Part shown: one piece after another, positions 9,991 to 41,922 of the stretch
Position numbering within the stretch: the stretch's first letter is position 1
How the letters are laid out: each line of letters opens with the position of its first letter
NCBI GenBank assembly: GCA_044892525.1
Contig: CM097886.1
Span: 31,186,001 to 31,250,000, forward strand
Length of the DNA stretch: 64,000 bases
From: Schmidtea polychroa
Taxonomy: Eukaryota
Reading direction: 5' to 3'
Position numbers and translations under genes: made by a program
The notes under the pieces: model-generated
The model's database searches: none
What the model was told of the DNA's origin: nothing
The model's input: only the letters and a program-made list of their open reading frames with translations

Positions 9991-12216
9991 AATATATGCA
10001 GTAACGCATTTATTAATGGTTAATGAGTCTCACGAGCAAGGCATGTAGGATGATTGTACCGATTAGTGAACATCATAATTAAAAAGTATATACCTAATAA
10101 TATACTTAGTAGCAATCGGGGAAGGTCTATAAGTTTTATAAATAGGTTATATAATTTCAATATATCCATTAGTTGAGGTAGATAAGCAGTATATTTAATA
10201 CTAAATTTTGGACATCGATGTAGGATCGTAATTTAAAAAAAAAATTCATATGTTTATTAACTTATAATTTCCTAAAAAGACCGATTAGGGTAAGTTTATA
10301 GTTGATCCATACAATTGTAAGGTTTTTTATTATATAGTGCATAAGTGTATAATTTATATAATGTATATATATAATTGTAGGGTTTATTTGTTATATAATT
10401 CATAAGTATATAACTGGTAATTTATACAAGCCATAATTCATATATAATCTACAATTTAGTATTTACAATTTAAAATTTATATTTAATTTATATCTCATGT
10501 GATTTATAAGTTTACATCCAATTATAGGTTTATACTCTATTATCAGCTTTTAGAAAGTGCAATCTTATGAAAAATTAATCCAGCATAATTTTATAGTTTA
10601 TATCAAATTATAGAGTAAGATTTATACTTTTATACATAGATTGGTAGTCGGGAATACTAGTTAAAAAAAAGTTTTTTAATTTCCTAATCAATACTCTTAT
10701 AATCGGTGGTAATTCATAAATTTAACTTGAAAGAGGTTTAGCCAACTACATATTTGGTGTATTGTAGTTAATTTAAGTCCGGAGCTCTACTCCATTTTTC
10801 ATCCTTAGGGTAGTGTATCACTGTGGAATTTTAATGTATAGATTATATGTACATTATGCGTGTGAAAAGTCAATTTACAGCAAATATTGCCTGCTTTCGG
10901 GGCCTCACTGTGCTCCCTACGACAAGCCCTTATTGTGAATGTAAGCGGTAATATACTACCGTGTATTATAATATCGATAACGAGTTCCGCGAACTCCATC
11001 GCCCGGAGGTGATTCATCGACGAACCCAGCGGCGTATACCACTGAGTCGGTACGACCTCCGACGACCCCACCATTATAATATTGAGGTGCATGCCAGGCA
11101 GTGGCCTGCTTACGTCAAGGCTGCGTGCACAATGACGTTGTAAATATTGATGCCCATTTGGTATGTGAGACGGACCAAAATCGATGATAAATTCGATCGA
11201 TGTTGGCCCCTCTAAAAAAATTTAAAAGGGGGTTCATTAATTAGAATCCTTTGGAGATTAATGCATAATAAATATTTAATATATATACCAAATACATGAT
11301 AAAAATAAACAACTGCATCAAATAAAAGAACAATTCTTACTTAAATATTTCTGATGAAGTTAAAATAATAACAAGAAAAAAATTTTTTTTGGCATAAAGA
11401 TTAACTTGTGACTAAAATGCGTCGGTATATATACCTATTTTGTACACGTGTATGTATTGATGCATTAAAACAAACTCGACTTCCTTTTATTCCAGAATTT
11501 TCTATTTTACGATTTTGCTATTTTTAATGGCAATTTTTGTGCCATAATTTTTGTTTTTATTTTTATCTTTTTATTTTTTACTTATTTTTCATTAATTTTA
11601 CGTCCATGATGGATTTGGAACGGTTCCAGAACATTCTATTTTACTTTTAATTTAATTTTTATTTTAACTGATATTTTTATGAATTTCTTTTTGAGATTTT
11701 TGGTTTTAATACTAATTTATTTATTTTCCTTAACTTTTGTTGTTCTAGATGACTTTTGTGTTGGCCATCGTCATTTTTATAGAATGTTCTGGGTTTTTCT
11801 GGAATGTTTTACTGTTTTTATCGTCTTTTAAGTTATTCGAGTTTGCTTTTTGTAACTTTGTTTTTATTTGGTTATTTTTGAGTTAGATTTTGCATAACTT
11901 CTTGCTCTTGTATAATTTTATTTACTTTCGGTGTTTATATTTTTCTGTTGTTTTCTCTTTTAATCAATATTGTTTATTTGGTGTATTTTTGATATTTAAT
12001 TATACTTTTTGCTTTTTCCATGTTATGTACCTACGCATTCTAGTCACAATTATAGTTGGGATCTAGAAGTCAGTTCTAGCCCAACATATTGTTGGGGTTA
12101 CACCTCGGCTGACCATTCTACCATGTTGGCGGGTCTAAGGGTTGATTGTCCATCTCGAATAAAAGGTGCCACCGATTTGTCAACCTGGAGTGAAACCCCA
12201 CATAACTTTCTTCCAA

Positions 12217-12364
12217 CATAGTGCCCGTGAATCACTTCACGTTGGTACTGCACTATGCAGGCGAGACGCCAGCAAGCAGGTGAGCTTCTGCCTTAAAACT
12301 ACTCCTTGCTGAGGCCTCGACTTCCCATTCACGACTGCCGATAGAAGGGCTTACGTCCATTTCC
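12217..12364 (-). ncRNA. Conserved three-domain structured RNA element near the LTR end (copies at 3409-3550, 6507-6647 and 38179-38326)
   Basis: Stems covary among three divergent LTRs while the loops UUCUAAC/UUCUAUC, RCUCAC and AGUACCAA are conserved; G-U pairs favour the minus strand. Confidence 0.7.
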
Positions 12365-12623
12365 TTACACAACCACCTATCAGGATTCGCTGAATGCAAA
12401 TTGGGAAATTCTCACTAGATCTTGCGGGTTCTCTACTCAACCCACTTAATTAAAGTCTAATTATTCATGAACGAAAACGTGTAAGACAACAAAATTTATT
12501 AATTTCAACGTTATGACACAAGGATTCAGCTGTACACTTTACTAATGTTGGTCGAAAGAAGAGAAAACATCATAATCAACATAGATCGGATCCTTGTTCC
12601 TCATCCTGACCGCCACTGGGGTT

Positions 12624-13412
12624 TTATTGTTTCTCCCATTCAGTGTCGGCGAATAATTCATCGAGGTTGAAAAACTCGGAAGCGTTCTCTTCCCACCTTA
12701 CGCCAGCGGCTGATATGATTCGCGCTGAGGGTCCCGTTGTTAGGTCGATGGACACGTGAGAGTTGCCACCGTTGGTTGAGTCCTCTATTGATGGGATGTT
12801 TGGCTTTGTAGTGGCGCGCTCGCGCTGTCTCTTCTTGCGCTCTGCACGAGAGAGTTGTTTGCGCTTGGGTTTGCTTGAAGAGGCCACTTGCAGAAGGGTG
12901 ACTGAGACGGATGGACTAGCAGTGGGGGGCTTACTGGTACCCGTGATGACAACATCTGGTCGCTTGGGGGACAATTCGGTTTCGACGCAGTCTCGGCACG
13001 GTCTCTTGAACGGTGGAGAGGGATTCGAGGAAAGGTTGTGATGAGGCGGAAAGATGTCATCGGCCTCTCGGATGGGAACCTGCACTATTTTTCGGGTTGT
13101 AGCCGCCTGCACGTAAACCTTATGCAGTGCCTCGGATTGTTCTCTGATTAGACTTCTTTGGGCACGGCTCTCAGATATTAGCGCGTCCCGGCAATGCTCG
13201 CTACGATCGAGCTTCTTTTGGATCTCTTTCATCCGAGCGGGACTAAACCATGTCCCTTCCAGCTCGTCTATCTTCCTCTTGTAACGTCCAATCTGAGTTT
13301 GTAGGTCCTTTATCACCGTATTTTTATCCGCGCACGAGAAGCACGGCCGTAATGCTGATTTAGTGGTTGGTAGCATGCTTGCTATAAATAATACTAATGA
13401 AATGTAGAACAT
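12624..13412 (-). CDS. LTR-encoded 262-aa protein (ORF-B family: coiled coil, S/P-rich, basic NLS-like stretch)
   Basis: IDELEGTWFSPARMKE matches CRNFECTWFPPAEMKK; identical copy at 38586-39374. Confidence 0.7.
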   Translation of the reverse strand: MFYISLVLFIASMLPTTKSALRPCFSCADKNTVIKDLQTQIGRYKRKIDELEGTWFSPARMKEIQKKLDRSEHCRDALISESRAQRSLIREQSEALHKVYVQAATTRKIVQVPIREADDIFPPHHNLSSNPSPPFKRPCRDCVETELSPKRPDVVITGTSKPPTASPSVSVTLLQVASSSKPKRKQLSRAERKKRQRERATTKPNIPSIEDSTNGGNSHVSIDLTTGPSARIISAAGVRWEENASEFFNLDELFADTEWEKQ

Positions 13413-16182
13413 ACGATTTTAGAATAAATTAGATACGACCTACGGCCATTCGTGGATGCTTGACCGACAAAAAAAAAAAGAAAACTTATTCTACAATCCG
13501 GTTTTACCACGGATCTTATTTGTTGAAACAGTTTTATTTAATCAAATGCCATCGGTTTGACGCATGCTATTAACTTTGACTCTCTATTGATCTAACTGTA
13601 TACATGAGGGGCGTAACAATTAATAGGGTGTAAATATAATATTGGTGAAATAATATAATAACGCTTTAGTGGAGGGACATTATAGTATGCGACTAAACCT
13701 TACTATAAATTAGCTATTTTAATTTATTAAAAACAAATTACTATCGCTATTCTCAACATATTTTTGATTCGAAATTTGTTATTGGAAGTGTACTTTTAAT
13801 TCGGTAGTGAATGTGATTATCCATGTTGTCTACCATTTGTCTGAAAATATGTGATGAGTTTACATCAGCCATTACTTGAACACCCTAATGGGATATCTCA
13901 TTGGTCATAGCACATGTCCAAATTTACGGATACTACTGTCGACTAGTTGATTACATTATCGAACTATTGTGAATGTCACGTGTCGCGACTATCATGTATG
14001 CTAGTCTGATATTCTGTGCTCTCACCACATGGATTCGTGTATGGCTACTATCTTATCTCATTTACTTGGTGTATGCCATTTTCACAGTGATTTTATCGAT
14101 CCTGCTGTCATATGATTTTCTCTGCACGGTGATTTATTTGAATTATGATTTATGCTACCGTCAGTTCTCATCGCGGAATTTTACCCTTATCAACTTGTGT
14201 GAATGATCACCATCGTTTGGAAATTTATTGGATCTTTTCAGTGATCGTCGAGGGAATAATTCTACCAAATGCTGAAGCATATTACTACTCGCGTCATTCT
14301 ACTCGGATTTTCCTATTCAGATGTAATGCCGTCTCGATGAAAACTGTCCTTAGCCATTCGAAAATTTCTCTCAGGTTCAATAATTTGGATATATACCGTG
14401 ATGACCTGGCTCTTATTGTAGAAATAAATGTTATTAATTAAATTTGGTGATATTTTACCTGTTTATAATTTTTGAAATAACTAAGTCTATAAGAACTTTC
14501 TGATTATAATATTAGAGAGGTTTTCGTAGAATCTCGCATTTTATAGTTTCGAGTTAGTTAAAGTTTTTAGAATACTTTCGTAACCTGACATGCAATCAGG
14601 ACAGGCTAGACGTCATCGGGTCTATGATAACGGAATTTCATACGAAATCAGTTCTACTGAGGCCGGCAAATAGACGTTGTCGCAATTAATTTGATGAAAC
14701 CATGTTTCCAGATGAAGCGTACTATGAGATGTTGTTATTTTTGACGAAGTTCACTAAATCGTGGTCTGGATCTCTTTTTTCAATAGGGGTAAGATTTACG
14801 AAAACGACTTGACGAAAGAAAAAGGAATGCGACGCCCTCAGTCACTGTGCAAATCCTTGAAAATCCCTTCATTCGTACGACTATCTTTGTGAAATCATTG
14901 TCTACCGGTTATTTTTTATCCATACCCCATTATGATAATTTAGTCGCATCTTCAGCGATAGGACCCGTGAAGAAGCCTTCACATTTCGGCCCAATCTAGC
15001 TGCGTGATTGAAATACTCCATGTCCACCGGCTGAGCTCCCGAAGGCACCTCATACCATGACATGGAGTATCTCAACTCCACGTTACTCGTTAAATGAAAA
15101 TTCATAAAATCTTTAATTCAAATAAAATACGGACATCTGGATAAAAATATTTTATTAATTCTGAAATACTTAAATAATACAAATTCCATCAATACGTTAA
15201 AGTTATTAAAATGGAGAATCAAATGAAGAGAGTTAACCAAAATGTTTAATCGTTAATATTTACCATTACTATTAGCTTTACAAATACTTAAATAAATCTA
15301 TAAACAAATGAAATACCCCTTACTATTGTTTAGGCTGAGTCAAAATTCAATGTTGTTCGTTCCAAATAGTTTGAATGGTGGTCCGTTGGATGTCGATTAT
15401 TGTGATGGATGGTATTTCGGTCTCTGAACTGGTTTTGAATAGTCGTGGAGTTTTCTGAATGACGGTTGCTTGGCTAGTAGTGTCGATCCTATGAAATGCT
15501 CGGGGTTAACAGTCAAAACAGTAAACATTTTTCTTACCTATGAAATGCTCGGGGTTAACAGTAAATTTAATGTTTTTGGTAGTTGTATATATATCAAATT
15601 CTTATTTGTGCGGACCAATCAGAGTTGAGTACCGCTTATTTCTATTAATTTAATATAATTTTCTTGTTTTTAGGTTGTTTTTTCCTTATTTTCTTTATTT
15701 TTAATATGTTTTTCTATTTATTTCCTTAATTTCCTTATTATTTCTTGAATTCCTCTTTATTTATTTGTCAACTTGTTCTATTTTAATCTTTTCTTAATTT
15801 TATTTTTTGTTTTAATTCTTATGTCTTAATTATTATTTTCCTTATATCTTATTCTATTTTATTTCTGATTTTATTTATTTTATTTTTATTTTTCGTAATG
15901 TTCTACTTCCCTACTTTCTTATTTTTCAACGATTAAATTTTCGACTCAGCCCAACAAATCACTCGGGGACCCATCAAAATTGCGTCCCGCAATTGCATAA
16001 TTAACTTAATTCATTCATTCAAAAAAAAATATAACACGAACACGGAAAATTATACAACAATGATAAAAATTTTATTGTAAGATCAAGGTCAAAGCAAGAC
16101 CAAGCAAGTATCACTTAAGGTGATAGTTTGTACATACAATAAAAGTTTCCACATATAATAACACAAATGTTTGAATTAGAGT

Positions 16183-16851
16183 TTATGAACTGTTAACCAT
16201 TGGTGCTTCTGCTGGCGGCTGTTGGTTGGTTTGGGTATTGATGTTGAGATAGGTCTGACTATTAGATTTCGGCTGGATTGGTTGATTACTCGGGGTTCGA
16301 GGTCGGAATGGGGTTGGGTTAAGATTTGTCAGGGGCACTTCTTGAGGATTTTGGTTCGAGGTTGTTCTTATTGATGTCGAGATTCTACATCTATTTCGAA
16401 CTTCGTAAATTTTCATGAATATTGGTAGACATAGGAGGAGGGTCTCTGCGATCACCACATATATGAGATAATGGGTGTCATTGATCTCGGGAGGTGTTTT
16501 TGGCTTTTCTACAAGATTTTCAAAATCCTCTTGTTGCATTTGTTGTTCCAACTGGTCGATCTGTTGGCTTTGTTCGAAGATTTGTTTGTTTATCATTTTA
16601 CAATTGGGGTTCTTTTTACACATTGTTTGGATGTTGTTGATGTGGGATCGGGTTGATTGAATGGTTTGGATGATATGGGTTTTCACGGTCATAGGGTATG
16701 TGCATTTGCCGGATTCTTGTTTAGGTTCTTGATTTTGATTGCGGTAATCTCGTACGATTTTCGGTTGGGCGTTTAATTGTTTGTTCTCCATCAGAATCAT
16801 CAATACCATCATTGTTATCATCATCTCGCCTCGCATGATACTATTATACAT
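16183..16851 (-). CDS. Accessory type I membrane protein (signal peptide, Cys-containing ectodomain, TM, P/Q/N-rich tail)
   Basis: MMITMMVLMILM signal; YLIYVVIAETLLLCLPIFM TM; tail contains TYLNI. Confidence 0.7.
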   Translation of the reverse strand: MYNSIMRGEMMITMMVLMILMENKQLNAQPKIVRDYRNQNQEPKQESGKCTYPMTVKTHIIQTIQSTRSHINNIQTMCKKNPNCKMINKQIFEQSQQIDQLEQQMQQEDFENLVEKPKTPPEINDTHYLIYVVIAETLLLCLPIFMKIYEVRNRCRISTSIRTTSNQNPQEVPLTNLNPTPFRPRTPSNQPIQPKSNSQTYLNINTQTNQQPPAEAPMVNSS

Positions 16852-16891
16852 TCATTATGTTTATTTACAATTGGTTTTAATGACCCTTAAT

Positions 16892-17644
16892 TTAATGGTT
16901 CTGATTTGGATTATTTTCACCGATTCTCATCAAGGTGGACTCTGCTTTAATTACCCTGTGTCTTAACTCGGGCAGCATTTCCAATTGTCGGTCTTTTTCA
17001 CGGGCTTCTCTCTTTAGATGTCTAATTTCTTTTTCCAAGCGTCTAATTTCTTCCCTTTTCTTTTCAAGGTTTCTTTTTAGCTCGATTTGTAGGAGATCTT
17101 GTTCGTTTTCTTGCAGGTAATTTTGTTGTTGATGTTTTCTTTCTATTTCTCTATATTTGCGGACCCACTTCCTCATTTCTTTACTTTCCCGTTGGTTTTC
17201 TTCTAGTTGTCGTTTTAATTTATTTATAGCTGTTTGGCGCTCCTTCGCCTCAGTTTTCCAGTAGTCTTGGATTACCTCCTTTGCTTTGAAGCTTGCCCTC
17301 TCTTTCCATAGCTCTTCCGCTATCTTTTCCCAGTTTTTCCCTCGCTTCCTTTGTTCGTGTAGCCATTCATTTTCCTCTTCCGTTTCTCTTTTTATTTCCC
17401 CCAACGCTTCGCACTCTTTCTTTAACACCTTTATCATTTTCCGGTCCTCCAGGTATTTGTTTATTAATCTCCCGTTTTCGTATTTCTCTTCCCGTAACTC
17501 GGCCTTTAGCGTTTGGGTTTCTGTTGTTTCTGCCTCAATCTCTCCCTCTTCTACGTCGCTCATAATTTCTATCGTTTCCTCGATTTTCATATCTATAATA
17601 TGTACAGTTAATGGTGCGCTATAGTGCGACTTATACGTATACAT
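16892..17644 (-). CDS. Accessory coiled-coil protein (probable start MKIEET)
   Basis: Long E/K/R-rich intact ORF with an AG acceptor just before the internal ATG. Confidence 0.7.
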   Translation of the reverse strand: MYTYKSHYSAPLTVHIIDMKIEETIEIMSDVEEGEIEAETTETQTLKAELREEKYENGRLINKYLEDRKMIKVLKKECEALGEIKRETEEENEWLHEQRKRGKNWEKIAEELWKERASFKAKEVIQDYWKTEAKERQTAINKLKRQLEENQRESKEMRKWVRKYREIERKHQQQNYLQENEQDLLQIELKRNLEKKREEIRRLEKEIRHLKREAREKDRQLEMLPELRHRVIKAESTLMRIGENNPNQNH

Positions 17645-17758
17645 TGATATAAAATTTAATAGTTTGGGTTACAGTCCCTTGAATACTTTTACAATACTTT
17701 AATTTTTTTGTTTGGGATATACGTCCCGGTTTTTAGTTTTTCATCTTTTCATCCACCC

Positions 17759-18814
17759 TCATACGAAGGTTTCCTCCTGGCCTACATAACCTTCATCACT
17801 ATCGACCGCGGAATGTAACTGTATCGCAATAGGGTCGTATGGTAGGTAATATTGGGGAATTTGAGCTCTCAATTCACTAACTTCGTCTCTTAGAGCTCGA
17901 GTGATATTCAATTCCTCGTCGAGCAGATAGGTGAGATACCTTGTCTCTTCATCTTTCGCCTCTATCTGTTTGTCTAGGGCCTTGACTTTCTCGTCGCCCT
18001 TCCATTTTTCAATTTCTATTTCTAAGTTTTTAATATTTTCGGTGTACATTTTCCTTTCGTTTTCTAATTTTCTGTTTTTTCCCGCTAGGACCATGTTTCT
18101 TTGTTCCAGCGATCCTTGTAATCCATTAAGGTCTCTTTTCATCTCTTCTACCTGATTTACTAATTCCACAACCCGTCCCGCTTGTTGGGTTATCATCTCT
18201 TCCATTGCGGCATTCTCGTGCTCTCTTATGTCGCACTTCATTGCCAAATGTCGCTCAAACTCCATAGCCTTTGTTTGCCAGGTTTGGCTTCGGGCGGCGA
18301 CCTTTCTCAACCTTTTCAATTCTTCCTTTATTATTAAATTCTCCTCCCATTTACCTTGTTCGCTTTCATATCCGAGTCTCATGGGCAATTCTTTCATCTC
18401 TTTTTTCATTTCTCTGTTTTGTCTTTTCCATTTTCTCGCTTCTGCCACTAAGTGCATCATTTTCCTGTCTTCTATTTGTTTTTCCGCTTCGCGCTTGGTG
18501 TTCTCATCGGTAAGTCTTTTTCTCGCTTCCTGCACTAGCTGCTTTAAGTAGTGGCTGTGTGCTTCTTGGCGGGTATTTTCTAGTGACGCCCATTTTGATG
18601 CTCTTTTGCATGCTTCTGCTTCCGCTCTTAAGTTGTGTATTAACCATTGGTATTGACTATTCTCATCTTCTCTAGTTTCTTCGATGTGATTTCGGGTGAG
18701 ATTAGTTAGTTGGAACATTACTTTGTTCCATTTTTTATTATGTTCTCGGGGAATTTGTGTCTTGTTGACATTGGTTGGGGCTATCGCAGTTTCGGTTATT
18801 TTCTCTTGTGTCAT
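17759..18814 (-). CDS. Accessory coiled-coil protein, 351 aa
   Basis: Long intact heptad-rich ORF with the same codon bias as the polyprotein. Confidence 0.75.
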   Translation of the reverse strand: MTQEKITETAIAPTNVNKTQIPREHNKKWNKVMFQLTNLTRNHIEETREDENSQYQWLIHNLRAEAEACKRASKWASLENTRQEAHSHYLKQLVQEARKRLTDENTKREAEKQIEDRKMMHLVAEARKWKRQNREMKKEMKELPMRLGYESEQGKWEENLIIKEELKRLRKVAARSQTWQTKAMEFERHLAMKCDIREHENAAMEEMITQQAGRVVELVNQVEEMKRDLNGLQGSLEQRNMVLAGKNRKLENERKMYTENIKNLEIEIEKWKGDEKVKALDKQIEAKDEETRYLTYLLDEELNITRALRDEVSELRAQIPQYYLPYDPIAIQLHSAVDSDEGYVGQEETFV

Positions 18815-19007
18815 CTCTAAATCATAGACATCGATTAATCTTTTTATTATGAAAAAGGAATTTATTCATTATTTACTGTTTCTTGGGAAATTTTCGCATC
18901 ATTTTTGGGTTTTCGTATTTAGGGTTTTCATTCTATTATTATATAATATTTTATTGGTTATATACACCGATATATACAGATTATTATATACAACATTATT
19001 CGATTGG

Positions 19008-20396
19008 TTACTCCGTTCTACCCTTCTCCTCTTTCCTCACGGTCATCTTGATATATATGGTATCATTTCTCGCCATATCTTCTACTCTTTGTTGTGAGAT
19101 GAACGTAGGTGCTCCTGTTGCTGATCCTTCTTCGTTGAGGGGCCTCTGGTAAGCTATTTGATTCCCCGTTGTTTTGAAGCTTTGCTCATGTATACTTTGG
19201 TTGTTCATCAGAGTAATATCGATTTTTGCCTGGAACGGCCATTCTAATATTTCGTCGTATTCTCCTTTACATAACAGAAAGAAAATCGAAAAGTGCGTAT
19301 CCAATCCGGTTCCGTCCCCGTTGGGATATACCTTCATTTTCATTTTGTACCCATTTTTCCAAGAATGGAATGTAGGACTTGTTATTCTTGTCTCTTCTCC
19401 GGTTTTTGCTTTTCGTATTCTTTCTTTTACTCCCGTTATTTTCCATATGTAGGGTGCTGTTGGGGTTATCTCATTTAGATTTATTTCCCGTATTTTCTGA
19501 TGTAGCTCCTTGGCCTGATTATTACTGATTTCTGTTCGGTTTATTTGCATCTTTATGTTTGCTCGGGCTTCTTCGAACGCTTCCCTTTCTTCTAGTAGTT
19601 CTTTGACTAACACTTTCAACGATGTTATCTCTATCTCCATTTGTTTTACTTTCTCTTCGCTTTCTTGTAGCGCAGTCGACCACATTTCTGCGTGAGTTGA
19701 AGCATTTTCTACTAAATGATGTGGTAACTCACCTCGGTGTAGTAGTTTCTGACAACCCCATCTACCTAGTACACATGTCATTCTTTTCTTTGCGCATTCC
19801 CTTAGATGCTGTGCCACCTTCATTATTTCCCCTTGGTTACATCCGTTTGGGCATTCCCCACTGAACTCTGCACATACTCTCTCCTCTTGGACATTGTGAT
19901 GTTTGAGGGTGAGATTTATCCACGTATCTATTTCTCCACAGTGTTCACATCTTTCCAATCTCTCTTCACACTGCCTTTGATGCTCTTTTTCTTCGCTTGC
20001 TCGAATGGTTTTATGGCACCTTTCACACTGGCCAATTCTGTACATACATTCTCCCATATGTTGTACTACCTTCCATATTACTCCTTTCCATTCGCATGGG
20101 GCATTTTTGCATCCCAGGTTGGTGTTTAACATGTCTTTCACTGCGGCTTTATCCTCGTTAGTGTCTTCTAAACTCGATATTAGTGTCTCTTTACACACCG
20201 GGCACCTCTGTGGTCTATTCTTTATTGCTTCACTGATACATTCTTTACATACTCTGCATCCACATTGCGTTTGGTGAGGTTCCTTTAACAGCTTTTCACA
20301 TATTCCGCACGTAACATGTTTGTGTATTCTGATCGTTGTAGATTTTCGGACTTGCTCGACAATCTCTCTGAACTCTTCTCTTTGTCGTTTATCCAT
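19008..20396 (-). CDS. TRAF-family protein (RING, TRAF zinc fingers, coiled coil, MATH/TRAF-C), intronless, inside the retroelement
   Basis: CGICEKLLKEPHQTQCGCRVCKECI..CPVC RING; YIWKITGV..SPTF..GYKMKMKVYPNGDGTGLDTHFSIFFLLCKGEYDEILEWPF MATH. Confidence 0.93.
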   Translation of the reverse strand: MDKRQREEFREIVEQVRKSTTIRIHKHVTCGICEKLLKEPHQTQCGCRVCKECISEAIKNRPQRCPVCKETLISSLEDTNEDKAAVKDMLNTNLGCKNAPCEWKGVIWKVVQHMGECMYRIGQCERCHKTIRASEEKEHQRQCEERLERCEHCGEIDTWINLTLKHHNVQEERVCAEFSGECPNGCNQGEIMKVAQHLRECAKKRMTCVLGRWGCQKLLHRGELPHHLVENASTHAEMWSTALQESEEKVKQMEIEITSLKVLVKELLEEREAFEEARANIKMQINRTEISNNQAKELHQKIREINLNEITPTAPYIWKITGVKERIRKAKTGEETRITSPTFHSWKNGYKMKMKVYPNGDGTGLDTHFSIFFLLCKGEYDEILEWPFQAKIDITLMNNQSIHEQSFKTTGNQIAYQRPLNEEGSATGAPTFISQQRVEDMARNDTIYIKMTVRKEEKGRTE

Positions 20397-20481
20397 TCTA
20401 TAATTATATGTACAAATAGTTCTTATCGATACAGGTTCGATATTTTATTTACAATTATTTACATTTTAAGCTAGGTTTGGT

Positions 20482-20865: not shown

Positions 20866-21001
20866 CTCTTATGTAAATTTAATTTTATTTTATGATTCCC
20901 GTTATTGTATAATATTGATACCGCGCTTATATAGAGATATAGTACTGTTATATACATAAGATATACTTACTTTTTACAATTATATACAGTCATATTCCTT
21001 T

Positions 21002-29500: not shown

Positions 29501-32500
29501 GCGTCAAATTGCGCTTCGTATTCTTTTAATTCGACCGTGTAAGACTCGATCACTACAACTCCCGATATTACCTCGCCTCGGATCGTATACGTACCTCCGT
29601 TACATGACCCATCTGATGATTTTACTTTTCCGGATACGTAAACACTTTCGGTTTTAATCATTCCAGTTTGTCCGTGAATTGTCACTCCGTTATGCATTTT
29701 TAGCGCTCCGGTTCTAAATAGCTCTTTACAATCCTCTCGTTGTATTGATACGATTTCCTTATCCAGACCGGGTAGTATAAGAGTCGAATACGAATATTGT
29801 CCACAGTAATATGCGAGTACCTTTTTTGATACTACGCATTCCCTTGCTTGCGTTCTGATGAAATCTGATTCTTGATATACATGGTAAGTAACTTTTGTTC
29901 TCACGATGTCCAATTTGTTGGGTGAGGCTTGTCTGCATTCTTCTATGTCTCTCAATGAGTATTTATCTCTCATTATCATATTATCACAATCGTAGATGGT
30001 GAAACCTGTTGCTCCACTTGTGCACAACATCCATATCATCATAGTCATCATTAACGAATTTATTGATGCTTTTCTGCTTGCGGGATCTTTCATCGGTAGT
30101 TCCCATTCTAGTTCATTTAACAGTTTTTTCAATCTAACTTGCATCGACCTTTCTTGCTCATTTTTCCGTGGCGCTTGTATCAGTCTTTTCCATCCTCCTG
30201 CACGAATAATATGTGGTTCAATAGTATTCTCTATGATTGAAACGGTCATTTCCACATGATTTGCAAACTGTTTATTTGGTATTTTCCTCGCAGCTAGTCC
30301 CATCAAATTATACATCAAATAAGTGATTACCACTAGGTGATGTTCGTCATCATTTGCATTTGTCGTGAGCTGCTCAATCACTCTCTTTGTTTCGTCCCAA
30401 TCCGTTTTGGTGGTTTTCGTTTTCTCTTTGATTAACTTTGGGATTATCCCCGAAATGGTGTGCCATAATTGTCTAGCTTCCGTACTGGCTACTTTCCGTT
30501 GCCACAAACGTCTAAGTTGTGGGTTTGTTATTATTAACATATCTTTTAACAATTCTCGTATCCATTTTTCTCCTCTTTCGATCGTTGGTTGGGCTTCCTT
30601 TAGATCCCATACTATTTTATCCAATTTTTCTAATCGAACTTGCCCTTGTTCTTGCTTTAATTGTTCTTTGGTTTTGAACTCAGACTTTTCTCCTTGTTTC
30701 TTAGGTCTTCCTTTTGCCCGTTTTTCCATCATCGTTCCGGCTTCTCTGGTATTTTCGTAATTCGGATTTCTTTCGTTATCCGTTCTGGGTAATGAGCTAT
30801 CGTTATTTCTTAGCCACTCATTCCATTCGTCTATTATTTTGTCGGTTTGACCTTCTGGTGTTACTTTCGTTGGTTCTCTTTGCTTCTGGAATTGTTCATC
30901 CGTTTCGGTTTCCGTAGTATTGTCGATGATTTCTTTGATGTTCAGTTTCGTTGGTTGTTGATAACTCGTTGATGGCTGGTTATTAGTCCACATTTCGGCT
31001 CCTGTCGGCCATCTCACTAATAGCGGTGATCTTTCTCCTGGTTCATCGTCACTATCTTCCAGGATTATCTCTTCAACTTCTTCAGTTTCATTAGATTTAC
31101 TTGGTGCTTTGTTCGGACTTGGAGTACTCAAACTGCCTTTTGTTGGTTTAATAATTTTACTTTTCCTTTTTAACGGTTTTCCCAACGTTTCTGCCATTGT
31201 TAATACATTTGTCTCTTCCAATCTCATGGGGGTTATCCCGATGTCTGCATTATCGTCTAGTGATTTTCCGAACAGTTGCAGATGGAATGGAGTTTCATAT
31301 GCTAATTTCTTTTTTAATTCTCTAATTTTTGTTGTTGGATGCACCTCTAGTTCCTCGATGCTCTTGTCTGGATACTTGATTCGGATGTGATACCTCTCCT
31401 GGGTGTCTTGTGCCCATTCCTGATTTCTCCATTTTCGAATAATTTGTTCTAGCTGTTCTGGATACCATTCATTATATTGCCGGTATTCCTCTATTGCCTT
31501 TGCCATTCCTCTCAGATTGTGGATGTCCTCTGATGTCTTTAAGATGATGTTAGCCAACGCTACTACTTGGCGTCTTTGATTTTTCGCTCCCATTGCTAAA
31601 ATATCGCCTAATTGTTTATATCTTTCTTTCTCTTCTCGTTCTCTTGCTTCCGTCGCTTCCTCGCCGTCCATATCAGCATATTCACGTTCCTTTTTCCTCA
31701 TTGCATGAATATGTCTCGCTTCATTTTCGCTTTCTGATGTGACATCCGTCTCGCCTTCGTCATCTGATGTCTGTCCCCTTGCTTCCTCTTCATATTCTGG
31801 GGGTTCCTCTTCTTCTTCCTCCGATTCACTTTCTGTCTCACCAATGTCTGTTTCCACGAAGGTTCCTTTCCGGATTTCCCATTCCTTACTTTCTGCATTC
31901 CACACTCTTTCCCATGGGGTTCGTCTGCAGGATCTGGTGCTTAATTTCGTGATTTTTCCTTGTAGTTCTTTTTCTTTTAACCATTGTTGGTGGATTTTAA
32001 TTATTTCCGTAGATTTTTGATATAACGTTTTCATCCGGTCTCGTATTTCTTTTTGATAGGTTACATCTCTTGTTCGAAATTCATCCATTGGTACTATCCT
32101 GATTATCTGATGATTGTCCCACATACCCATTTCGCTTAACGAGGTGTCGTCCTCCGCTCGTAATATTATCTTATCGTACATCATGACTACATCATCCACC
32201 ATACCATCACTACTTTCGCTACGTACCTTCTCCGTTATCTCTTGGTTTATTTTTGATACCAAGTCATCCACTGTACTCTGATTGCTCATTTTTATTCGTC
32301 GTTTTTCTTCGTTCGGTAACCATATGGTTATTTCCAACCTCTGTGGCTGGGTTTCTTTTAACCTTCCATATTTGTGGATCAAATTTATGGTTCTCCAATC
32401 ACTCATTCGGAGCATTTCTGTATCTCGCAACCGGCTCATTAGTTCGTACATGGCTGGGGCTCGTCTGGTGATGAGTAAATCCCAGTTGTCTTCTACTTGC

Positions 32501-34854
32501 TCTTGAATTTGTTTGATCAGCTTATCCAGGTTTCGTCTCAGAGTACATTGTTTTATTTGTTCTAATTTCAATTTGATATTAAAATCATATTCTGCCTTGG
32601 CATCTTTAGCCCAGTCGTAAAGGTTGGCTGGTTGTTTTTCTTTATGCAACTTCAGTATTTGCGTTTCTCCTGGCCATATTAGTGCATCTACTAAGTGCAT
32701 ATCTGGTTTGATCTGTTCTCCTTGGTATTGATACAGATATTCTTTCTTTCTCGAACTTCCCAAATGCTCTCGTATCCAATCGAAAAGTTCGTCGGTGACT
32801 GTATTTTTTATCCACATTCTTTCAAGTCCTCTACTCGTTCCGATTTTTATTACATACCGCGTGGTATCGGCCTGCTTCATTTTTTCCATATAATTTTTTA
32901 TAATTGATTTTTCCTCGTTTGGTATTAAATCTTTCTCGTTTCTTTCCAATTTCATCACTTTTTGCACGAATCGCCTGAATGGTATTACGTCAATGAACTC
33001 TTGGTTCCTCACTACTACTGGGAGTATTTCCGCTACTTGTTTTATCGCTTCCTCCTTCCCTTTTCTCAACTTTATTTCGATATCCTCGTCTTCACTTTCG
33101 CTGGTTATCTCGCTTTCGCCTTCTTCCTCTTTGATTTCCCCTTTTGGAGGTTCGCTTATTTCATTCAGCTGTAGTATTTCTCCACCCAAACTACTTACAT
33201 AGTCTTCTTCCTCGTCTGACGATGCTACATCTTTTGTCCTTTTCATCATATTGATTTGCAAGTTTCTCATCCTTGGTACTCTCTTTAGTTTCTTTCTTTC
33301 GAATATCGTTGTTTCTTCTGATTCTAATTCCTGTAGCATTTGGTGGTTTAGTTGACTGGTTTGTTCCTTGCTCTTGTTATTTTCATCTTCTGTCTCGGCT
33401 TTCGCTTTATTATGTTCTTTTTCGATTTTATCTTTTATCTTTTTCCAGAATATTTTCTGAATTCTCTGGTTTCCTTTTAAAATCGTGGTTGAATTCTCTG
33501 TTTTCATTTCCGTTGTTATTTCTTTTACCTTTTCTGGTTCAGTCATGGGTACTACCCTTGGGCTTTTCCCGTAATTGTAGCAATACTGGCTCTTCATGTC
33601 TTTTACTAACCTCATCATATTTATTCGCAATGGTTGTTCTTGTCGTTGTTGGTTGCGTTCTTGTTTTATCTTCTCTTCCTCGGCCTGTAGCCTTTGCCAT
33701 TCTTGTACATGTTGATGCACTTCATAATTGTTGAGATTTTCGGTACTCCTCATCATACGTATATTCTGGGTTTGTTGTGGTGCTGATTCTTGTCTTGGTC
33801 TCATCATTTGCTGCATCATCTGTTTCATCTGCGAAATTTCCTGCATAACGTTCATTTGTTTTCCTTCGTTAGGGTTACTTTGTCGTTGCGGATTCGCTAT
33901 ATAATTATTATTTCGCTGTGGTGGTCGTTGTTGTTGGCCCCTTTCTCGGCAATCTCTGGAGATGTGACCTGGCTGACCACAGTTAAAACAGCCTCGCAAT
34001 TGGCATACATTTTCGGTATGTCCACGCCGTCCGCAACGATTACAATTTGAATTTCTATAACAATCTCTGTCCCAGTGTCCTGGTTTACCGCATGTTCGGC
34101 ACTGCTTGTTATCGTTCATATTTCGCCGATTATTGAAATTGTTCTCGTTATTCGGGTTGTTACGATTACCATTATTCCCGTTTGATCGTCCTTGTGGTGG
34201 TTTGAAAATTTGGTGCGCTCCTGGTATAAATTGATTCATTTTCGGTTCTTGATTGTTGTTATCTCCGTTATCCGCTTTCGCTATTGCTGTCGCTATCCTT
34301 CCCTCCTCTTGCATAATATTCATTTGAGCTGGAAGGTGGAGCTCGCATCTTGTAGCCCAGTCTATGGCTTCCTCTAATGTTTTGCACATTTGACAACCTA
34401 CTGAGGCTCTTACTTCTTCTCGGCGTAATCCCTCTATGAAATAACCGATCAGATTTTCTTCGGGTAATTTTCCATTCATTGCTTTCTTCGCTAATCTCCG
34501 CAATTCACTGGCATATAATGTTATCGATTCGTTTGCTCTTTGTTTCCTATTTGCTAGTTCGCCCAACGCCTGGTTGATTGGCTTACCGGCTCCGAAGGTT
34601 TTCTTCAGGAATGTTTTAATATCTTCCCACTTTTCTAATTTCGTGTCTCTCTCTTTAGCTTCTAAATATACCTCTAATGCACTATCGCACAAAAACAACG
34701 GCATCCTTTTACTAATTGCTTCGGGTGTCCATCCACACACAGTGATATAAACTTCAAAATTAGTTATGAACGATGCTAGCTTGTTTGCGTTTCCGTTGAA
34801 CGGTTCTCCTCTGAACTTCTCTTTATACTCGTCGGTTTTTACGACATTCGTCAT
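26476..34854 (-). CDS. Polyprotein part 1: Gag (CA, three CCHC knuckles), accessory modules, Bcl-2-like domain, envelope glycoprotein, aspartic protease, dUTPase-like linker, RT N-half
   Basis: [79 protein letters not shown]; Cys-rich ectodomain between a signal peptide and a TM. Confidence 0.93.
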   Translation of the reverse strand: [2792 protein letters not shown]

Positions 34855-36164
34855 GATTGGTGTTCTAGGTTCGTCTGTTTCTTTTAAATTGTCTAACGAT
34901 GTGACTAAACTTTGGGCTGATAATTCCTCGGTTGACGTTGCTAAACTATTAGTGATATCGGACAGACTTTCTCTACTTCGAGATCGACTAGGGGTATATC
35001 CGAGATTTTCTTGGTCAAATATGGGTACTTGATTGGTTCTTCTGGATCCTTGTGATATTCCTCTTTGATGTTTAATGGATCGTCCTCTTTTGAGTTGTTG
35101 TAATTCGTCTCCTGAAAATAATACGTCTCCTGGCTTACTAGAAGATCTAAGATTGGGTTTATCCGTGATTCCTTTCTTACGCTTCTTGGTAATTAGCGGC
35201 TATTGAATTGGACGCGTTCGGTTCTGATTGTGTTTCCTTCGATAAATATTCTGTATGAATCTGCTACTGAGATCCTGAGGAGATTTACTAATCCTTGGCA
35301 GATGGCTGCTAATACTTCTTCCGTTCTGGAGTCTTCCGGTTGCTGTGTCTCTCGGTGCGGGTTCTGAATGGATTTATCCTTGGTTGATTGTCGATTTCTT
35401 CGAATTCCTTTTGTGCAGGTTCTGGATTGTCTTGGTTGGCTGGATTGGCTTGATATCTAAAATGAAAAAATGATCTCGTGTTGCATTTGCTTACACGACT
35501 TCATCATTCTTTCTACAACATTCAAAAACAGACACCTTTTAGGTTTCTGTTTGTGCTTCCCCTATCTTTTGTGAAATCCTTTCTGCGGGTTATAATATCC
35601 CATCAGCCCGTATTTTCCGTCGATTTTAAATTATCTATATGGGGTAGTAACAATTATCTATAAAGTCGTAATAATTATCTATTCGTTATCAATTATAGTA
35701 AAAATAGGTCGTTGTCGGTCTCTGCTTATTACCCCCCTTTCATTTTCCTAATCCTTTTGCGCTGTTGTCGCTATTTTACTTTTCATATTCACTATTATTA
35801 CGCTCGGTTCTACTCTGGAACCAATAAAATGCATTTTCCCGGTTTAATCAAAAAAAAAATATTCCGTAGAGTTTCTCTACTTCACTGGGATCCCTTTAAT
35901 TAGTTAGTTACTTTCCTCTTTACTCATTATCATCATTTCATCTATTCTTTATTTTCTATTATCTCTTTACTTCGTTTCCTTCTTCCCTTTCCTTTTTCCT
36001 TATAATCTTATTTTCTTTTCCACGAGCTCGTTTATTTCCTCTCTAAACTCGAATTTTCAAAATTACATTCAATTTGTTCTAGCTAGCTTTAATATTCCAT
36101 ATCACTAGTAATTTAAATATTATCTCGTTGTAGCTTAACTGCTATCTCTCGCTTTTCTAGGCCT

Positions 36165-36646
36165 TTACGACTGGCTGGCACTATTCAACAGCTCAATCTT
36201 CTTCCTTCTGATCGGTTAGACTATTCAACAACTCGATCTTACGACTGGCTGGCACTATTCAACAGCTCAATCTTCTTCCTTCTGATCGGTTGGACTATTC
36301 AACAACTCGACCTTACGACTGGCTGGCACTATTCAACAGCTCAATCTTCCTCCTTCCTGATCGGTTGGACTTTTCACAACTCGACCTTACGACTGGCTGG
36401 CACTATTCAACAGCTCAATCTTCTTCCTTCTGATCGGTTGGACTATTCAACAACTCGATCTTACGACTGGCTGGCACTATTCAACAGCTCAATCTTCCTC
36501 CTTCCTGATCGGTTGGACTTTTCACAACTCGACCTTACGACTGGCTGGCACTATTCAACAGCTCAATCTTCTTCCTTCTGATCGGTTGGACTATTCAACA
36601 ACTCGATCTTACGACTGGCTGGCACTATTCAACAGCTCAATCTTCA
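36165..36646. repeat. 74-bp tandem repeat, 6.5 copies, in the leader upstream of gag
   Basis: ttacgactggctggcactattcaacagctc... starts at 36165, 36239, 36313, 36387, 36461, 36535 and 36609. Confidence 0.95.
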
Positions 36647-37223: not shown

Positions 37224-37709
37224 TCATTCGCCATAATAGACCATATGGGTCTCTTTTATTTCATATTTGCACATCGTGCATCTTTTTAGGTCTTTTACAC
37301 ACTCTTCACAGTGACTGAGGTGTCCACACGGCAAGAATAATACGCGAATAGGACGGAGTTTGCAGGCTATACAAGTTCGTAATTGGTTAACTTTTTCCTG
37401 TATTTTTTGTTCGATTGCATCTGGTATTGTATTTAGTGAGTCTTTTAGACGCTGATAATCTAGATTTAATGTTGGGTGGTTCAATCTCTCTTGATACCAC
37501 TGATATACGGTTTCGGGGTTTATTTTTCCATCTGGGCGACTTAGGCCTGTGGCTAATATCATATGATTAGGTACGACTGGTGTTTGTCCGATTGCTTGCA
37601 GTAATATCGCGTTGATTTTTTCTCTTTTATGCGTCAGTGTTGTTAGGGAGTCGTTTTCTATATCGATAAACTTGAGCAGTTGTTGCATTTGGTTCGCGAA
37701 TTCTGTCAT
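37224..37709 (-). CDS. C-terminal IAP/MGRN1-type C3HC4 RING protein (putative E3 ligase, no BIR seen)
   Basis: CIACKLRPIRVLFLPCGHLSHCEECVKDLKRCTMCKYEIKETHMVY at the extreme C-terminus. Confidence 0.85.
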   Translation of the reverse strand: MTEFANQMQQLLKFIDIENDSLTTLTHKREKINAILLQAIGQTPVVPNHMILATGLSRPDGKINPETVYQWYQERLNHPTLNLDYQRLKDSLNTIPDAIEQKIQEKVNQLRTCIACKLRPIRVLFLPCGHLSHCEECVKDLKRCTMCKYEIKETHMVYYGE

Positions 37710-38026: not shown

Positions 38027-38044
38027 ATCCCGGCTGAGCCCCCA
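38027..38044 (-). promoter_or_regulatory. Primer-binding site, tRNA-Pro type
   Basis: TGGGGGCTCAGCCGGGAT versus the MLV tRNA-Pro PBS TGGGGGCTCGTCCGGGAT (16/18), 7 nt inside the 5' LTR end. Confidence 0.85.
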
Positions 38045-38051
38045 AAAATCA

Positions 38052-41000
38052 TGTTGGGGTTACACCTCGGCTGACCATTCTACCATGTTGGCGGGTCTAA
38101 GGGTTGATTGTCCATCTCGAATAAAAGGTGCCACCGATTTGTCAACCTGGAGTGAAACCCCACATAACTTTCTTCCAACATAGTGCCCGTGAATCACTTC
38201 ACGTTGGTACTGCACTATGCAGGCGAGACGCCAGCAAGCAGGTGAGCTTCTGCCTTAAAACTACTCCTTGCTGAGGCCTCGACTTCCCATTCACGACTGC
38301 CGATAGAAGGGCTTACGTCCATTTCCTTACACAACCACCTATCAGGATTCGCTGAATGCAAATTGGGAAATTCTCACTAGATCTTGCGGGTTCTCTACTC
38401 AACCCACTTAATTAAAGTCTAATTATTCATGAACGAAAACGTGTAAGACAACAAAATTTATTAATTTCAACGTTATGACACAAGGATTCAGCTGTACACT
38501 TTACTAATGTTGGTCGAAAGAAGAGAAAACATCATAATCAACATAGATCGGATCCTTGTTCCTCATCCTGACCGCCACTGGGGTTTTATTGTTTCTCCCA
38601 TTCAGTGTCGGCGAATAATTCATCGAGGTTGAAAAACTCGGAAGCGTTCTCTTCCCACCTTACGCCAGCGGCTGATATGATTCGCGCTGAGGGTCCCGTT
38701 GTTAGGTCGATGGACACGTGAGAGTTGCCACCGTTGGTTGAGTCCTCTATTGATGGGATGTTTGGCTTTGTAGTGGCGCGCTCGCGCTGTCTCTTCTTGC
38801 GCTCTGCACGAGAGAGTTGTTTGCGCTTGGGTTTGCTTGAAGAGGCCACTTGCAGAAGGGTGACTGAGACGGATGGACTAGCAGTGGGGGGCTTACTGGT
38901 ACCCGTGATGACAACATCTGGTCGCTTGGGGGACAATTCGGTTTCGACGCAGTCTCGGCACGGTCTCTTGAACGGTGGAGAGGGATTCGAGGAAAGGTTG
39001 TGATGAGGCGGAAAGATGTCATCGGCCTCTCGGATGGGAACCTGCACTATTTTTCGGGTTGTAGCCGCCTGCACGTAAACCTTATGCAGTGCCTCGGATT
39101 GTTCTCTGATTAGACTTCTTTGGGCACGGCTCTCAGATATTAGCGCGTCCCGGCAATGCTCGCTACGATCGAGCTTCTTTTGGATCTCTTTCATCCGAGC
39201 GGGACTAAACCATGTCCCTTCCAGCTCGTCTATCTTCCTCTTGTAACGTCCAATCTGAGTTTGTAGGTCCTTTATCACCGTATTTTTATCCGCGCACGAG
39301 AAGCACGGCCGTAATGCTGATTTAGTGGTTGGTAGCATGCTTGCTATAAATAATACTAATGAAATGTAGAACATACGATTTTAGAATAAATTAGATACGA
39401 CCTACGGCCATTCGTGGATGCTTGACCGACAAAAAAAAAAAGAAAACTTATTCTACAATCCGGTTTTACCACGGATCTTATTTGTTGAAACAGTTTTATT
39501 TAATCAAATGCCATCGGTTTGACGCATGCTATTAACTTTGACTCTCTATTGATCTAACTGTATACATGAGGGGCGTAACAATTAATAGGGTGTAAATATA
39601 ATATTGGTGAAATAATATAATAACGCTTTAGTGGAGGGACATTATAGTATGCGACTAAACCTTACTATAAATTAGCTATTTTAATTTATTAAAAACAAAT
39701 TACTATCGCTATTCTCAACATATTTTTGATTCGAAATTTGTTATTGGAAGTGTACTTTTAATTCGGTAGTGAATGTGATTATCCATGTTGTCTACCATTT
39801 GTCTGAAAATATGTGATGAGTTTACATCAGCCATTACTTGAACACCCTAATGGGATATCTCATTGGTCATAGCACATGTCCAAATTTACGGATACTACTG
39901 TCGACTAGTTGATTACATTATCGAACTATTGTGAATGTCACGTGTCGCGACTATCATGTATGCTAGTCTGATATTCTGTGCTCTCACCACATGGATTCGT
40001 GTATGGCTACTATCTTATCTCATTTACTTGGTGTATGCCATTTTCACAGTGATTTTATCGATCCTGCTGTCATATGATTTTCTCTGCACGGTGATTTATT
40101 TGAATTATGATTTATGCTACCGTCAGTTCTCATCGCGGAATTTTACCCTTATCAACTTGTGTGAATGATCACCATCGTTTGGAAATTTATTGGATCTTTT
40201 CAGTGATCGTCGAGGGAATAATTCTACCAAATGCTGAAGCATATTACTACTCGCGTCATTCTACTCGGATTTTCCTATTCAGATGTAATGCCGTCTCGAT
40301 GAAAACTGTCCTTAGCCATTCGAAAATTTCTCTCAGGTTCAATAATTTGGATATATACCGTGATGACCTGGCTCTTATTGTAGAAATAAATGTTATTAAT
40401 TAAATTTGGTGATATTTTACCTGTTTATAATTTTTGAAATAACTAAGTCTATAAGAACTTTCTGATTATAATATTAGAGAGGTTTTCGTAGAATCTCGCA
40501 TTTTATAGTTTCGAGTTAGTTAAAGTTTTTAGAATACTTTCGTAACCTGACATGCAATCAGGACAGGCTAGACGTCATCGGGTCTATGATAACGGAATTT
40601 CATACGAAATCAGTTCTACTGAGGCCGGCAAATAGACGTTGTCGCAATTAATTTGATGAAACCATGTTTCCAGATGAAGCGTACTATGAGATGTTGTTAT
40701 TTTTGACGAAGTTCACTAAATCGTGGTCTGGATCTCTTTTTTCAATAGGGGTAAGATTTACGAAAACGACTTGACGAAAGAAAAAGGAATGCGACGCCCT
40801 CAGTCACTGTGCAAATCCTTGAAAATCCCTTCATTCGTACGACTATCTTTGTGAAATCATTGTCTACCGGTTATTTTTTATCCATACCCCATTATGATAA
40901 TTTAGTCGCATCTTCAGCGATAGGACCCGTGAAGAAGCCTTCACATTTCGGCCCAATCTAGCTGCGTGATTGAAATACTCCATGTCCACCGGCTGAGCTC

Positions 41001-41918
41001 CCGAAGGCACCTCATACCATGACATGGAGTATCTCAACTCCACGTTACTCGTTAAATGAAAATTCATAAAATCTTTAATTCAAATAAAATACGGACATCT
41101 GGATAAAAATATTTTATTAATTCTGAAATACTTAAATAATACAAATTCCATCAATACGTTAAAGTTATTAAAATGGAGAATCAAATGAAGAGAGTTAACC
41201 AAAATGTTTAATCGTTAATATTTACCATTACTATTAGCTTTACAAATACTTAAATAAATCTATAAACAAATGAAATACCCCTTACTATTGTTTAGGCTGA
41301 GTCAAAATTCAATGTTGTTCGTTCCAAATAGTTTGAATGGTGGTCCGTTGGATGTCGATTATTGTGATGGATGGTATTTCGGTCTCTGAACTGGTTTTGA
41401 ATAGTCGTGGAGTTTTCTGAATGACGGTTGCTTGGCTAGTAGTGTCGATCCTATGAAATGCTCGGGGTTAACAGTCAAAACAGTAAACATTTTTCTTACC
41501 TATGAAATGCTCGGGGTTAACAGTAAATTTAATGTTTTTGGTAGTTGTATATATATCAAATTCTTATTTGTGCGGACCAATCAGAGTTGAGTACCGCTTA
41601 TTTCTATTAATTTAATATAATTTTCTTGTTTTTAGGTTGTTTTTTCCTTATTTTCTTTATTTTTAATATGTTTTTCTATTTATTTCCTTAATTTCCTTAT
41701 TATTTCTTGAATTCCTCTTTATTTATTTGTCAACTTGTTCTATTTTAATCTTTTCTTAATTTTATTTTTTGTTTTAATTCTTATGTCTTAATTATTATTT
41801 TCCTTATATCTTATTCTATTTTATTTCTGATTTTATTTATTTTATTTTTATTTTTCGTAATGTTCTACTTCCCTACTTTCTTATTTTTCAACGATTAAAT
41901 TTTCGACTCAGCCCAACA
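38052..41918 (-). repeat. 5' LTR of element Z
   Basis: Direct repeat of 12090-15956, followed on the minus strand by the PBS. Confidence 0.95.
38586..39374 (-). CDS. Second copy of the LTR-encoded 262-aa ORF-B protein
   Basis: Identical translation to 12624-13412. Confidence 0.7.
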   Translation of the reverse strand: MFYISLVLFIASMLPTTKSALRPCFSCADKNTVIKDLQTQIGRYKRKIDELEGTWFSPARMKEIQKKLDRSEHCRDALISESRAQRSLIREQSEALHKVYVQAATTRKIVQVPIREADDIFPPHHNLSSNPSPPFKRPCRDCVETELSPKRPDVVITGTSKPPTASPSVSVTLLQVASSSKPKRKQLSRAERKKRQRERATTKPNIPSIEDSTNGGNSHVSIDLTTGPSARIISAAGVRWEENASEFFNLDELFADTEWEKQ

Positions 41919-41922
41919 ATAT

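Follow-up and report, generated by a model that had tools for sequence, protein, structure and literature searches.

A recently inserted Burro-type Ty3/Gypsy element of Schmidtea polychroa and its conserved cargo of cell-death- and ubiquitin-related modules

The window analyzed here, a stretch of 64,000 nucleotides of the Schmidtea polychroa genome (assembly GCA_044892525.1, contig CM097886.1, positions 31,186,001 to 31,250,000; coordinates below are those of the window), contained a Ty3/Gypsy element of 29,829 bp on the minus strand (12,090-41,918). We propose that this is a frameshifted copy of an actively spreading element of the Burro type, the selected cargo of which (Bcl-2-like, ubiquitin-like (Ubl), ankyrin, TRAF, and IAP-type RING modules) likely serves the element itself by preventing the death of the cell that produces it and by dampening ubiquitin-based defence signalling. 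The proposal is based on sequence comparisons: very young copies with the same genes in the same order, low ratios of nonsynonymous to synonymous substitution rates (dN/dS) in the cargo, and a collinear sister family in the same genome.

Ends, copies, and selection

The two long terminal repeats (LTRs; 3' LTR, 12,090-15,956; 5' LTR, 38,052-41,918), both 3,867 bp in length with TG...CA termini, showed no differences from each other, and enclosed an internal region of 22.1 kb. A 4-bp target-site duplication (TSD), ATAT, was found at 12,086-12,089 and 41,919-41,922. The primer-binding site (38,027-38,044; 7 nt from the 5' LTR) was identical over 18/18 nt to the 3' terminus, with CCA added, of a gene for tRNA-Pro(TGG) in the same genome, and no purine-rich tract was present directly before the 3' LTR. 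These results confirmed the LTRs, primer-binding site, and TSD described in the initial annotation. Genes for the primer tRNA formed a tandem array with a 475-bp unit (loci L044-L046, G000:C1:130.90-130.95 Mb), and the tRNA-Pro(TGG) pattern had 1,095 matches per strand genome-wide. The insertion point corresponded to the first bases of an older LTR (11,388-12,089), which was 90% identical to the LTR of the sister family described below; no empty insertion site was found in the assembly, a result that says nothing on polymorphism.

When the genome was searched with the start of the reverse transcriptase (RT), all 150 scored matches were at least 91% identical, and this copy number is a lower bound. 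A 4,732-codon frame (Gag-Ubl-Bcl2-Env-protease-RT-integrase-ankyrin) contained 59 of these matches, and 63 were found in frames of at least 4,700 codons, the polyprotein frame being shorter than 4,700 codons in the other 87. TRAF copies were scored at 99-100% identity in 40 cases; among the 39 other than that of the window, measured by hand, the distance to an RT match was the expected 6,763-6,765 bp in 33, 6,950 bp in one, and shorter in two (deletions), while three had no listed RT match. In ten other copies examined at both ends, the LTR pairs were 99.86-100% identical (10/10), and the TSD was 4 bp in all nine with ends that could be placed. On the other hand, the LTRs of different copies diverged from one another by 3-5%, and in some the middle part had been replaced (loci L047-L066), indicating that several LTR lineages were active at once. 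The element in the window was inserted very recently, and its family is probably spreading actively.

The open frame of the window copy was 2,907 codons, compared with 4,732 in the family, and a frameshift at ~26,580, shared by none of the 29 other aligned loci, interrupted its RT. Since all 29 loci differed by one gap at this point and long frames were present elsewhere, the family has a single polyprotein frame of ~4,600 residues, with the frameshift being private to the window copy. The frameshift is either real or an assembly error; unless the latter applies, this copy would be unable to make RT and integrase in frame, and would need other copies in trans. It was, therefore, not as intact as it had first looked.

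Selection was estimated against five diverged copies, one at a synonymous divergence (dS) of ~0.1-1 and four of one subfamily at ~1-3. All open reading frames (ORFs) of at least 119 aa were retained in these copies in the same order, with dN/dS values of mostly 0.01-0.15: 0.01-0.04 for Env, 0.01-0.16 (mostly 0.01-0.1) for the Ubl domains, 0.01-0.12 for the Bcl-2-like domain, 0.04-0.11 for the ankyrin repeats, and 0.07-0.12 for TRAF. Values of ~0.2 were reached by a linker of low complexity and by a single helical segment, and the fastest-evolving cargo was a 222-aa membrane protein gene (23-27% identity and dN/dS of 0.37-0.55 against the diverged subfamily). The retention of ORFs in order at low dN/dS suggested that the cargo is functional for the element, and is not passenger DNA. 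A loss of the accessory genes from other copies, which would have spoken against the initial annotation, was refuted by their retention across dozens of copies and the diverged subfamily.

A TRAF-MATH search revealed a sister family (loci L132-L143), in which a MATH domain was located inside a 4,791-codon frame, between the second and third Ubl domains. Three copies of this family were collinear gene-for-gene with the window element, from the RING ORF through the LTR ORF; RT-RNase H was 88-89% identical between the two, Env 58-59%, the Bcl-2-like domain 34%, and TRAF 29%. In addition to the in-frame MATH, the sister family had a BIR-like RING gene (by eye) and also a separate TRAF of 487 codons. 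The RT-RNase H region was ~50% identical to those of compact gag-env-pol families. Much of the TRAF-MATH list was located in element frames, and, therefore, element cargo would inflate the numbers of TRAF, Bcl-2, and IAP genes counted in genomes of this type.

Domains of the polyprotein and separate genes

From the 5' LTR (with a 262-aa ORF), the gene order was a 161-aa RING ORF, a tandem repeat, ORF1 (2,792 aa), ORF2 (1,829 aa), and ORFs of 119, 462 (TRAF), 351, 250, and 222 aa, followed by the 3' LTR; all of the ORFs and domains below are encoded on the minus strand. ORF1 comprised gag, three CCHC knuckles, helical and Ubl segments, the Bcl-2-like domain, env, protease, and the start of RT, and ORF2 the remaining RT, RNase H, integrase, ankyrin repeats, and two hydrophobic segments. 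The gene content read in the initial annotation was largely recovered: Gag (with CCHC), Env, protease, RT, RNase H, and integrase were all matched in a Pfam scan, the ankyrin repeats, TRAF, and IAP-type RING were similarly assigned, and transmembrane (TM) segments were predicted in three ORFs, in accordance with the proposed membrane proteins. The Bcl-2-like and Ubl modules were moderately supported, the LTR-borne genes held in part, and the CARD-like module was not supported. Antisense ORFs of the element were discarded as chance frames.

The TRAF gene (19,008-20,396; 462 aa) was full-length and intronless with a complete domain set, namely, RING, zinc fingers, a coiled coil, and MATH (Pfam, E = 3e-27), and its nearest solved structures were TRAF3/TRAF2 (E = 8e-28). 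Its RING had Cys at a position where His is usual, a variant shared by five intronless host TRAFs and compatible with a capture from the lineage of this host. In a MATH tree of 22 rows, element TRAFs fell into three long lineages close to two host TRAFs, with support (78/78) too weak for captures to be counted. Searches for protein homologues were uninformative (TRAF, 0 of 3,810 candidates; residues 590-1,600 of ORF1, no matches). The 161-aa ORF upstream of gag (37,224-37,709), also present in the diverged subfamily and sister family, had a C-terminal IAP-type C3HC4 RING in Pfam, the best solved relatives of which were the RINGs of cIAP2/cIAP1 (E = 2.4e-10); no BIR domain was detected in a Pfam scan of nine element ORFs.

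A diverged Bcl-2-like domain (30,160-30,657) gave an E value of 0.026 in Pfam by itself and no matches in a single-sequence PDB search, while a profile built on nine such domains carried by elements of the same genome matched Bcl-xL (E = 2e-4). In its structural model (pLDDT of 53, i.e., low confidence), Bcl-xL ranked first by Foldseek (E = 0.05), and the Bcl-2 of Kaposi's sarcoma-associated herpesvirus (KsBcl-2) ranked first by VIA-align (Z = 7.5, root-mean-square deviation of 3.3, 116 aligned residues), a Z value below 8 not being decisive alone; nine of the top 50 VIA-align matches were Bcl-2 folds, including KsBcl-2, BHRF1, and poxvirus Bcl-2. Homology with the Bcl-2 family was, therefore, moderately supported by the profile and model, whereas the BH1 motif NWGR was missing. 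Multi-copy short Bcl-2-like ORFs found at five further loci (L107, L108, L109, L110, and L113) adjoined Polinton/Maverick-like ORFs, which, by eye and from known motifs, we take to be a DNA polymerase, packaging ATPase, integrase, and TBP-like gene; these carriers appear to be a second mobile class with Bcl-2 in this genome.

The Gag region (33,925-34,854) consisted of a Retrotrans_gag capsid and three CCHC knuckles (Pfam), and was followed by three Ubl domains with a helical segment before each (31,180-33,069). One Ubl domain was supported by Pfam (E = 0.003) and ubiquitin matches in Foldseek, and the other two were weaker; the presence of Ubl domains in the element is, thus, moderately supported. 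The segment initially taken for CARD (32,350-32,577) was conserved, with 32% identity in the sister family, and no fold was assigned to it: no Pfam CARD match was obtained in the element, a host-CARD profile did not match the element ORFs, none of the four loci found by a Pfam CARD search of the genome was in an element frame, and the segment was modelled at a pLDDT below 50, with no informative match in a structure Atlas search. The helical segments had no listed death-fold match, and the best-modelled one (ORF1 residues 1,060-1,150) only generic helical-repeat matches (Z of 9.5 or less).

The envelope glycoprotein (28,234-30,069), in frame between gag and pol and, more precisely, between the Bcl-2-like domain and protease, was of class III (herpes simplex virus (HSV) gB/mononegavirus-type); it matched the Monjiviricetes fusion glycoprotein (PF24664, E = 2.7e-70), with a TM anchor at ORF1 residues 2170-2206 and an internal signal-like segment read by eye. 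An aspartic protease (DTG) with a 100-aa segment (27,055-27,699), RT and RNase H (25,607-27,054), and an integrase (24,257-25,564; HHCC, DDE, and GPY/F) were assigned by Pfam, in the case of integrase together with motifs found by reading; the 100-aa segment behind the protease, where Burro has a dUTPase-like domain, had no Pfam match. Two ankyrin-repeat blocks (22,232-24,214; Ank_2, E = 1.5e-17) followed integrase in frame. The C-terminal module of the polyprotein (21,002-22,024) was predicted to consist of a second internal signal-like segment, a short ectodomain, and a TM anchor, with hydrophobic segments at ORF2 residues 1493-1516 and 1757-1784, both of which could also be made out by eye in the sister-family sequence.

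Among the remaining ORFs, the 119-aa ORF (20,482-20,841) was kept in the diverged subfamily (65% identity) and sister family (31%). ORFs of 351 aa (17,759-18,814; coiled-coil-like) and 250 aa (16,892-17,644; weak coiled-coil matches only) were also present in both. The 222-aa gene (16,183-16,851) was predicted from hydrophobicity to encode a type I membrane protein with a signal-like start and a TM segment at residues 126-151. The LTR-borne 262-aa ORF (12,624-13,412; second copy in the 5' LTR at 38,586-39,374) had a hydrophobic N-terminus, and was kept in the diverged subfamily (~41% identity) with a homologue in the sister LTR; the 67- and 91-aa LTR ORFs were not kept in any of the five diverged copies and were regarded as chance frames. 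A 74-bp tandem repeat of 6.5 copies (36,165-36,645) was present in the leader.

Other mobile sequences were found around the element. Two ORFs at 3,649-4,092 and 6,743-7,111 were homologues (38-48%) of the sister-family LTR ORF. A broken Gypsy element at 43,947-46,987 had a zinc knuckle, protease, RT, RNase H, and integrase, with no env detected, and a decayed compact gag-Ubl-Bcl2-env-pol copy was located at ~50,900-57,084, other copies of which had frames of up to ~3,050-3,090 codons. A 15-bp satellite of ~94 units (59,637-61,042) gave rise to a spurious 469-aa ORF.

Proposed role of the cargo and alternative explanations

The Bcl-2, IAP, and TRAF families have established roles in apoptosis and TNF/innate ubiquitin signalling. 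From domain identity and purifying selection, it may fairly be inferred that the element manipulates host cell death and signalling. A protease-site-like motif, [IM][NRHCAF][MVAIL][ML][QRKS], occurred seven times in ORF1 (shuffle mean of 0.6; none of 500 shuffles reached seven), at the ends of gag subdomains, ahead of the Ubl-Bcl2 block, and ahead of the protease, and was found at corresponding places in the diverged subfamily (seven) and sister family (five). In the proposed mechanism, the element's protease would cleave the polyprotein between domains, wherever this hydrophobic motif recurs at their borders, and signal peptidase would cut at the two internal signal segments, by which Env and a second small surface protein would enter the endoplasmic reticulum. 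The Bcl-2-like and ankyrin parts would remain cytosolic and membrane-tethered. The Bcl-2 fold may bind pro-death BH3 proteins, the TRAF and RING proteins may intervene in TNF/innate pathways, either as E3 ligases or as decoys, and Env may permit cell-to-cell spread, e.g., from the soma to stem cells. A tentative extension of this scheme is a currently spreading, enveloped "complex retrovirus" of invertebrates that would move between the cells of a regenerating flatworm and block death and innate signalling via a membrane-tethered Bcl-2 mimic, a TRAF of its own, and an IAP-type E3, with modules being gained and lost between sister families and a second, rapidly evolving surface protein tracking host defences.

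Several points weigh against this reading. The Bcl-2-like domain lacks NWGR, the first Trp of BH2 is replaced by His, and its model is of low confidence; accordingly, its role may be a different one, such as that of a scaffold in signalling. The Env signal segment was below the hydrophobicity cut-off used. The protease-site-like motif was not enriched in ORF2 (one match; 155 of 500 shuffles) and was absent from the compact family (0 matches), and its shuffle test was partly circular because the motif was derived from the same sequence. A single frame would fix the ratio of Gag, Env, and Pol at 1:1:1, leaving no evident way of producing Gag in excess. dS was saturated for several genes, and four of the five comparison copies were near-copies of each other.

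Replication may be intracellular only, with Env and the cargo as structural or trafficking parts and the Bcl-2 and Ubl folds repurposed. The degenerate Bcl-2 groove motifs are consistent with this, as is the position of the Ubl domains on the Gag side of the polyprotein, where helical spacers with no assigned fold separate them, and the available portions of PMC8532177, PMC6431247, and PMC13524379 contain no particle or infection data. However, the complete TRAF, the IAP-type RING, and the BIR-RING gene of the sister family are hard to explain as structural, and Env was constrained as much as RT; we consider this explanation unlikely. Even less probable is a mutualist, or a domestication in progress, in which the cargo is kept for host benefit, e.g., stem-cell survival in regeneration. 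BURRO1 is transcribed in the intestinal cells of Schmidtea mediterranea (PMC8532177), and all of the cargo was under strong constraint, but this constraint operated between mobile lineages, not at fixed loci, and the polyprotein frame was short in 87 of the 150 scored copies. Furthermore, BURRO1 is repressed by SMEDWI-2, and its RNA interference was reported, in the available portion of PMC8532177, only as not improving the smedwi-2 phenotype. Since selection on the cargo is expected from element-level fitness alone, nothing supported the "mutualistic" relationship that the initial annotation had suggested.

An assembly chimera, or chance nested insertions with passively captured host genes, may be practically dismissed. 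Older elements were nested on both sides of the element and the window copy was frameshifted, but identical LTRs and a TSD enclosed the whole element, and the same genes, order, and spacing were found in dozens of copies, the diverged subfamily, and the sister family. DNA contigs from public runs also covered 30 of the 30 bins of 16,000-35,900. No RNA data set was listed as containing this family; contigs from two possibly-RNA runs covered related sequence, mostly less than 95% alike, and showed neither expression nor splicing. An element-serving cargo is our preferred and a probable explanation.

Comparison with known systems

Viral Bcl-2, IAP, and ankyrin genes are carried by complex retroviruses and large DNA viruses, and captured death and ubiquitin regulators are shared by the present element. 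It differs from complex retroviruses in its Ty3/gypsy-type gag and integrase, in a class III, not class I, env, and in the position of env inside the polyprotein.

Six GAG-ENV-POL elements have been catalogued in S. mediterranea, and the wide errantivirus definition used there (protease-RT-RNase H-integrase order, class III env, and GAG-ENV-POL order) also applies to the present element (PMC13524379). Smed_errantivirus_5 and _6 share with it a Ty3/gypsy pol, an HSV/gB-type class III env, and the gag-env-pol order; by eye, the env fragment of Smed_errantivirus_5 resembled the present env more than did those of the other five elements, with agreement at 27 of the first 50 residues. These two elements, at approximately half identity, represent a different family or species, and no LTR or primer-binding site is listed for them in the portion of PMC13524379 available, the main text of which gave no matches for "Burro", "TRAF", or "accessory".

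Burro1/GYPSM1 and Burro2-4 of S. mediterranea, together with a Burro-like element in Dugesia tigrina, were proposed in 2019 to be possible proviruses that meddle with apoptosis and ubiquitination (PMC6431247). Their genes include MATH_TRAF_C, BIR, ankyrin, BCL2-like, Ubi2/SUMO-like, and dUTPase-like domains and accessory ORFs, with giant ORFs of 4,873 and 5,140 aa, an in-frame env that matches mononegavirus glycoproteins, and a variable place of MATH (PMC6431247). Burro elements measure close to 30 kb or more in total, with internal regions of up to 25 kb. Transcripts of BURRO1 are enriched in the intestine and repressed by SMEDWI-2/PIWI (PMC8532177). Literature searches found no further description of such elements beyond PMC6431247 and no experimental test of the apoptosis/ubiquitination proposal, and Burro was merely mentioned in the available portions of PMC11410931 and PMC13238120.

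The initial annotation had considered the element a possible member or relative of Burro, and the size class, env position, and cargo classes, together with the collinear sister family of the Burro1 layout in this genome, agreed with this view. Shared features are LTRs, a total length of ~30 kb, a single giant ORF (~4,600 aa here), tandem repeats, accessory ORFs, Gag with CCHC, Ubl/SUMO-like and BCL2-like domains, env in frame before protease-RT-RNase H-integrase, ankyrins, and MATH/TRAF (PMC6431247). On the other hand, the layout of Burro1 (in-frame MATH and a BIR-RING gene) is that of the sister family, and the window family has neither. Since the BIR gene is missing here, whereas the sister family has one at the corresponding position, the element appears to represent a sister family of Burro1 rather than Burro1 proper. 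Its full-length TRAF forms a gene of its own behind pol, in contrast to the upstream accessory MATH ORF of D. tigrina, and a BIR-less IAP RING upstream of gag is unlike Burro as described in PMC6431247. Comparison with the descriptions of Burro1-4, thus, supported its classification as a new family among elements of the Burro kind already published, with the Burro1-like family as its sister.

The kind itself and nearly all of the cargo, including the apoptosis and provirus idea, have already been published; a prior description with the same gene content was named in the initial annotation as removing novelty, and one with nearly the same content exists. The selection on the cargo, recent activity, gain and loss of modules, and the repeated protease-site-like motif are new; the available portion of PMC6431247 is silent on cargo selection and on the LTR ORF, the 222-aa membrane protein, and the C-terminal membrane module of the polyprotein. 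With many very young copies, selection measured on every cargo module, and defined domain borders, this family is suitable for testing the Burro proposal, as is its sister family, which differs from it by whole modules (MATH and BIR-RING).

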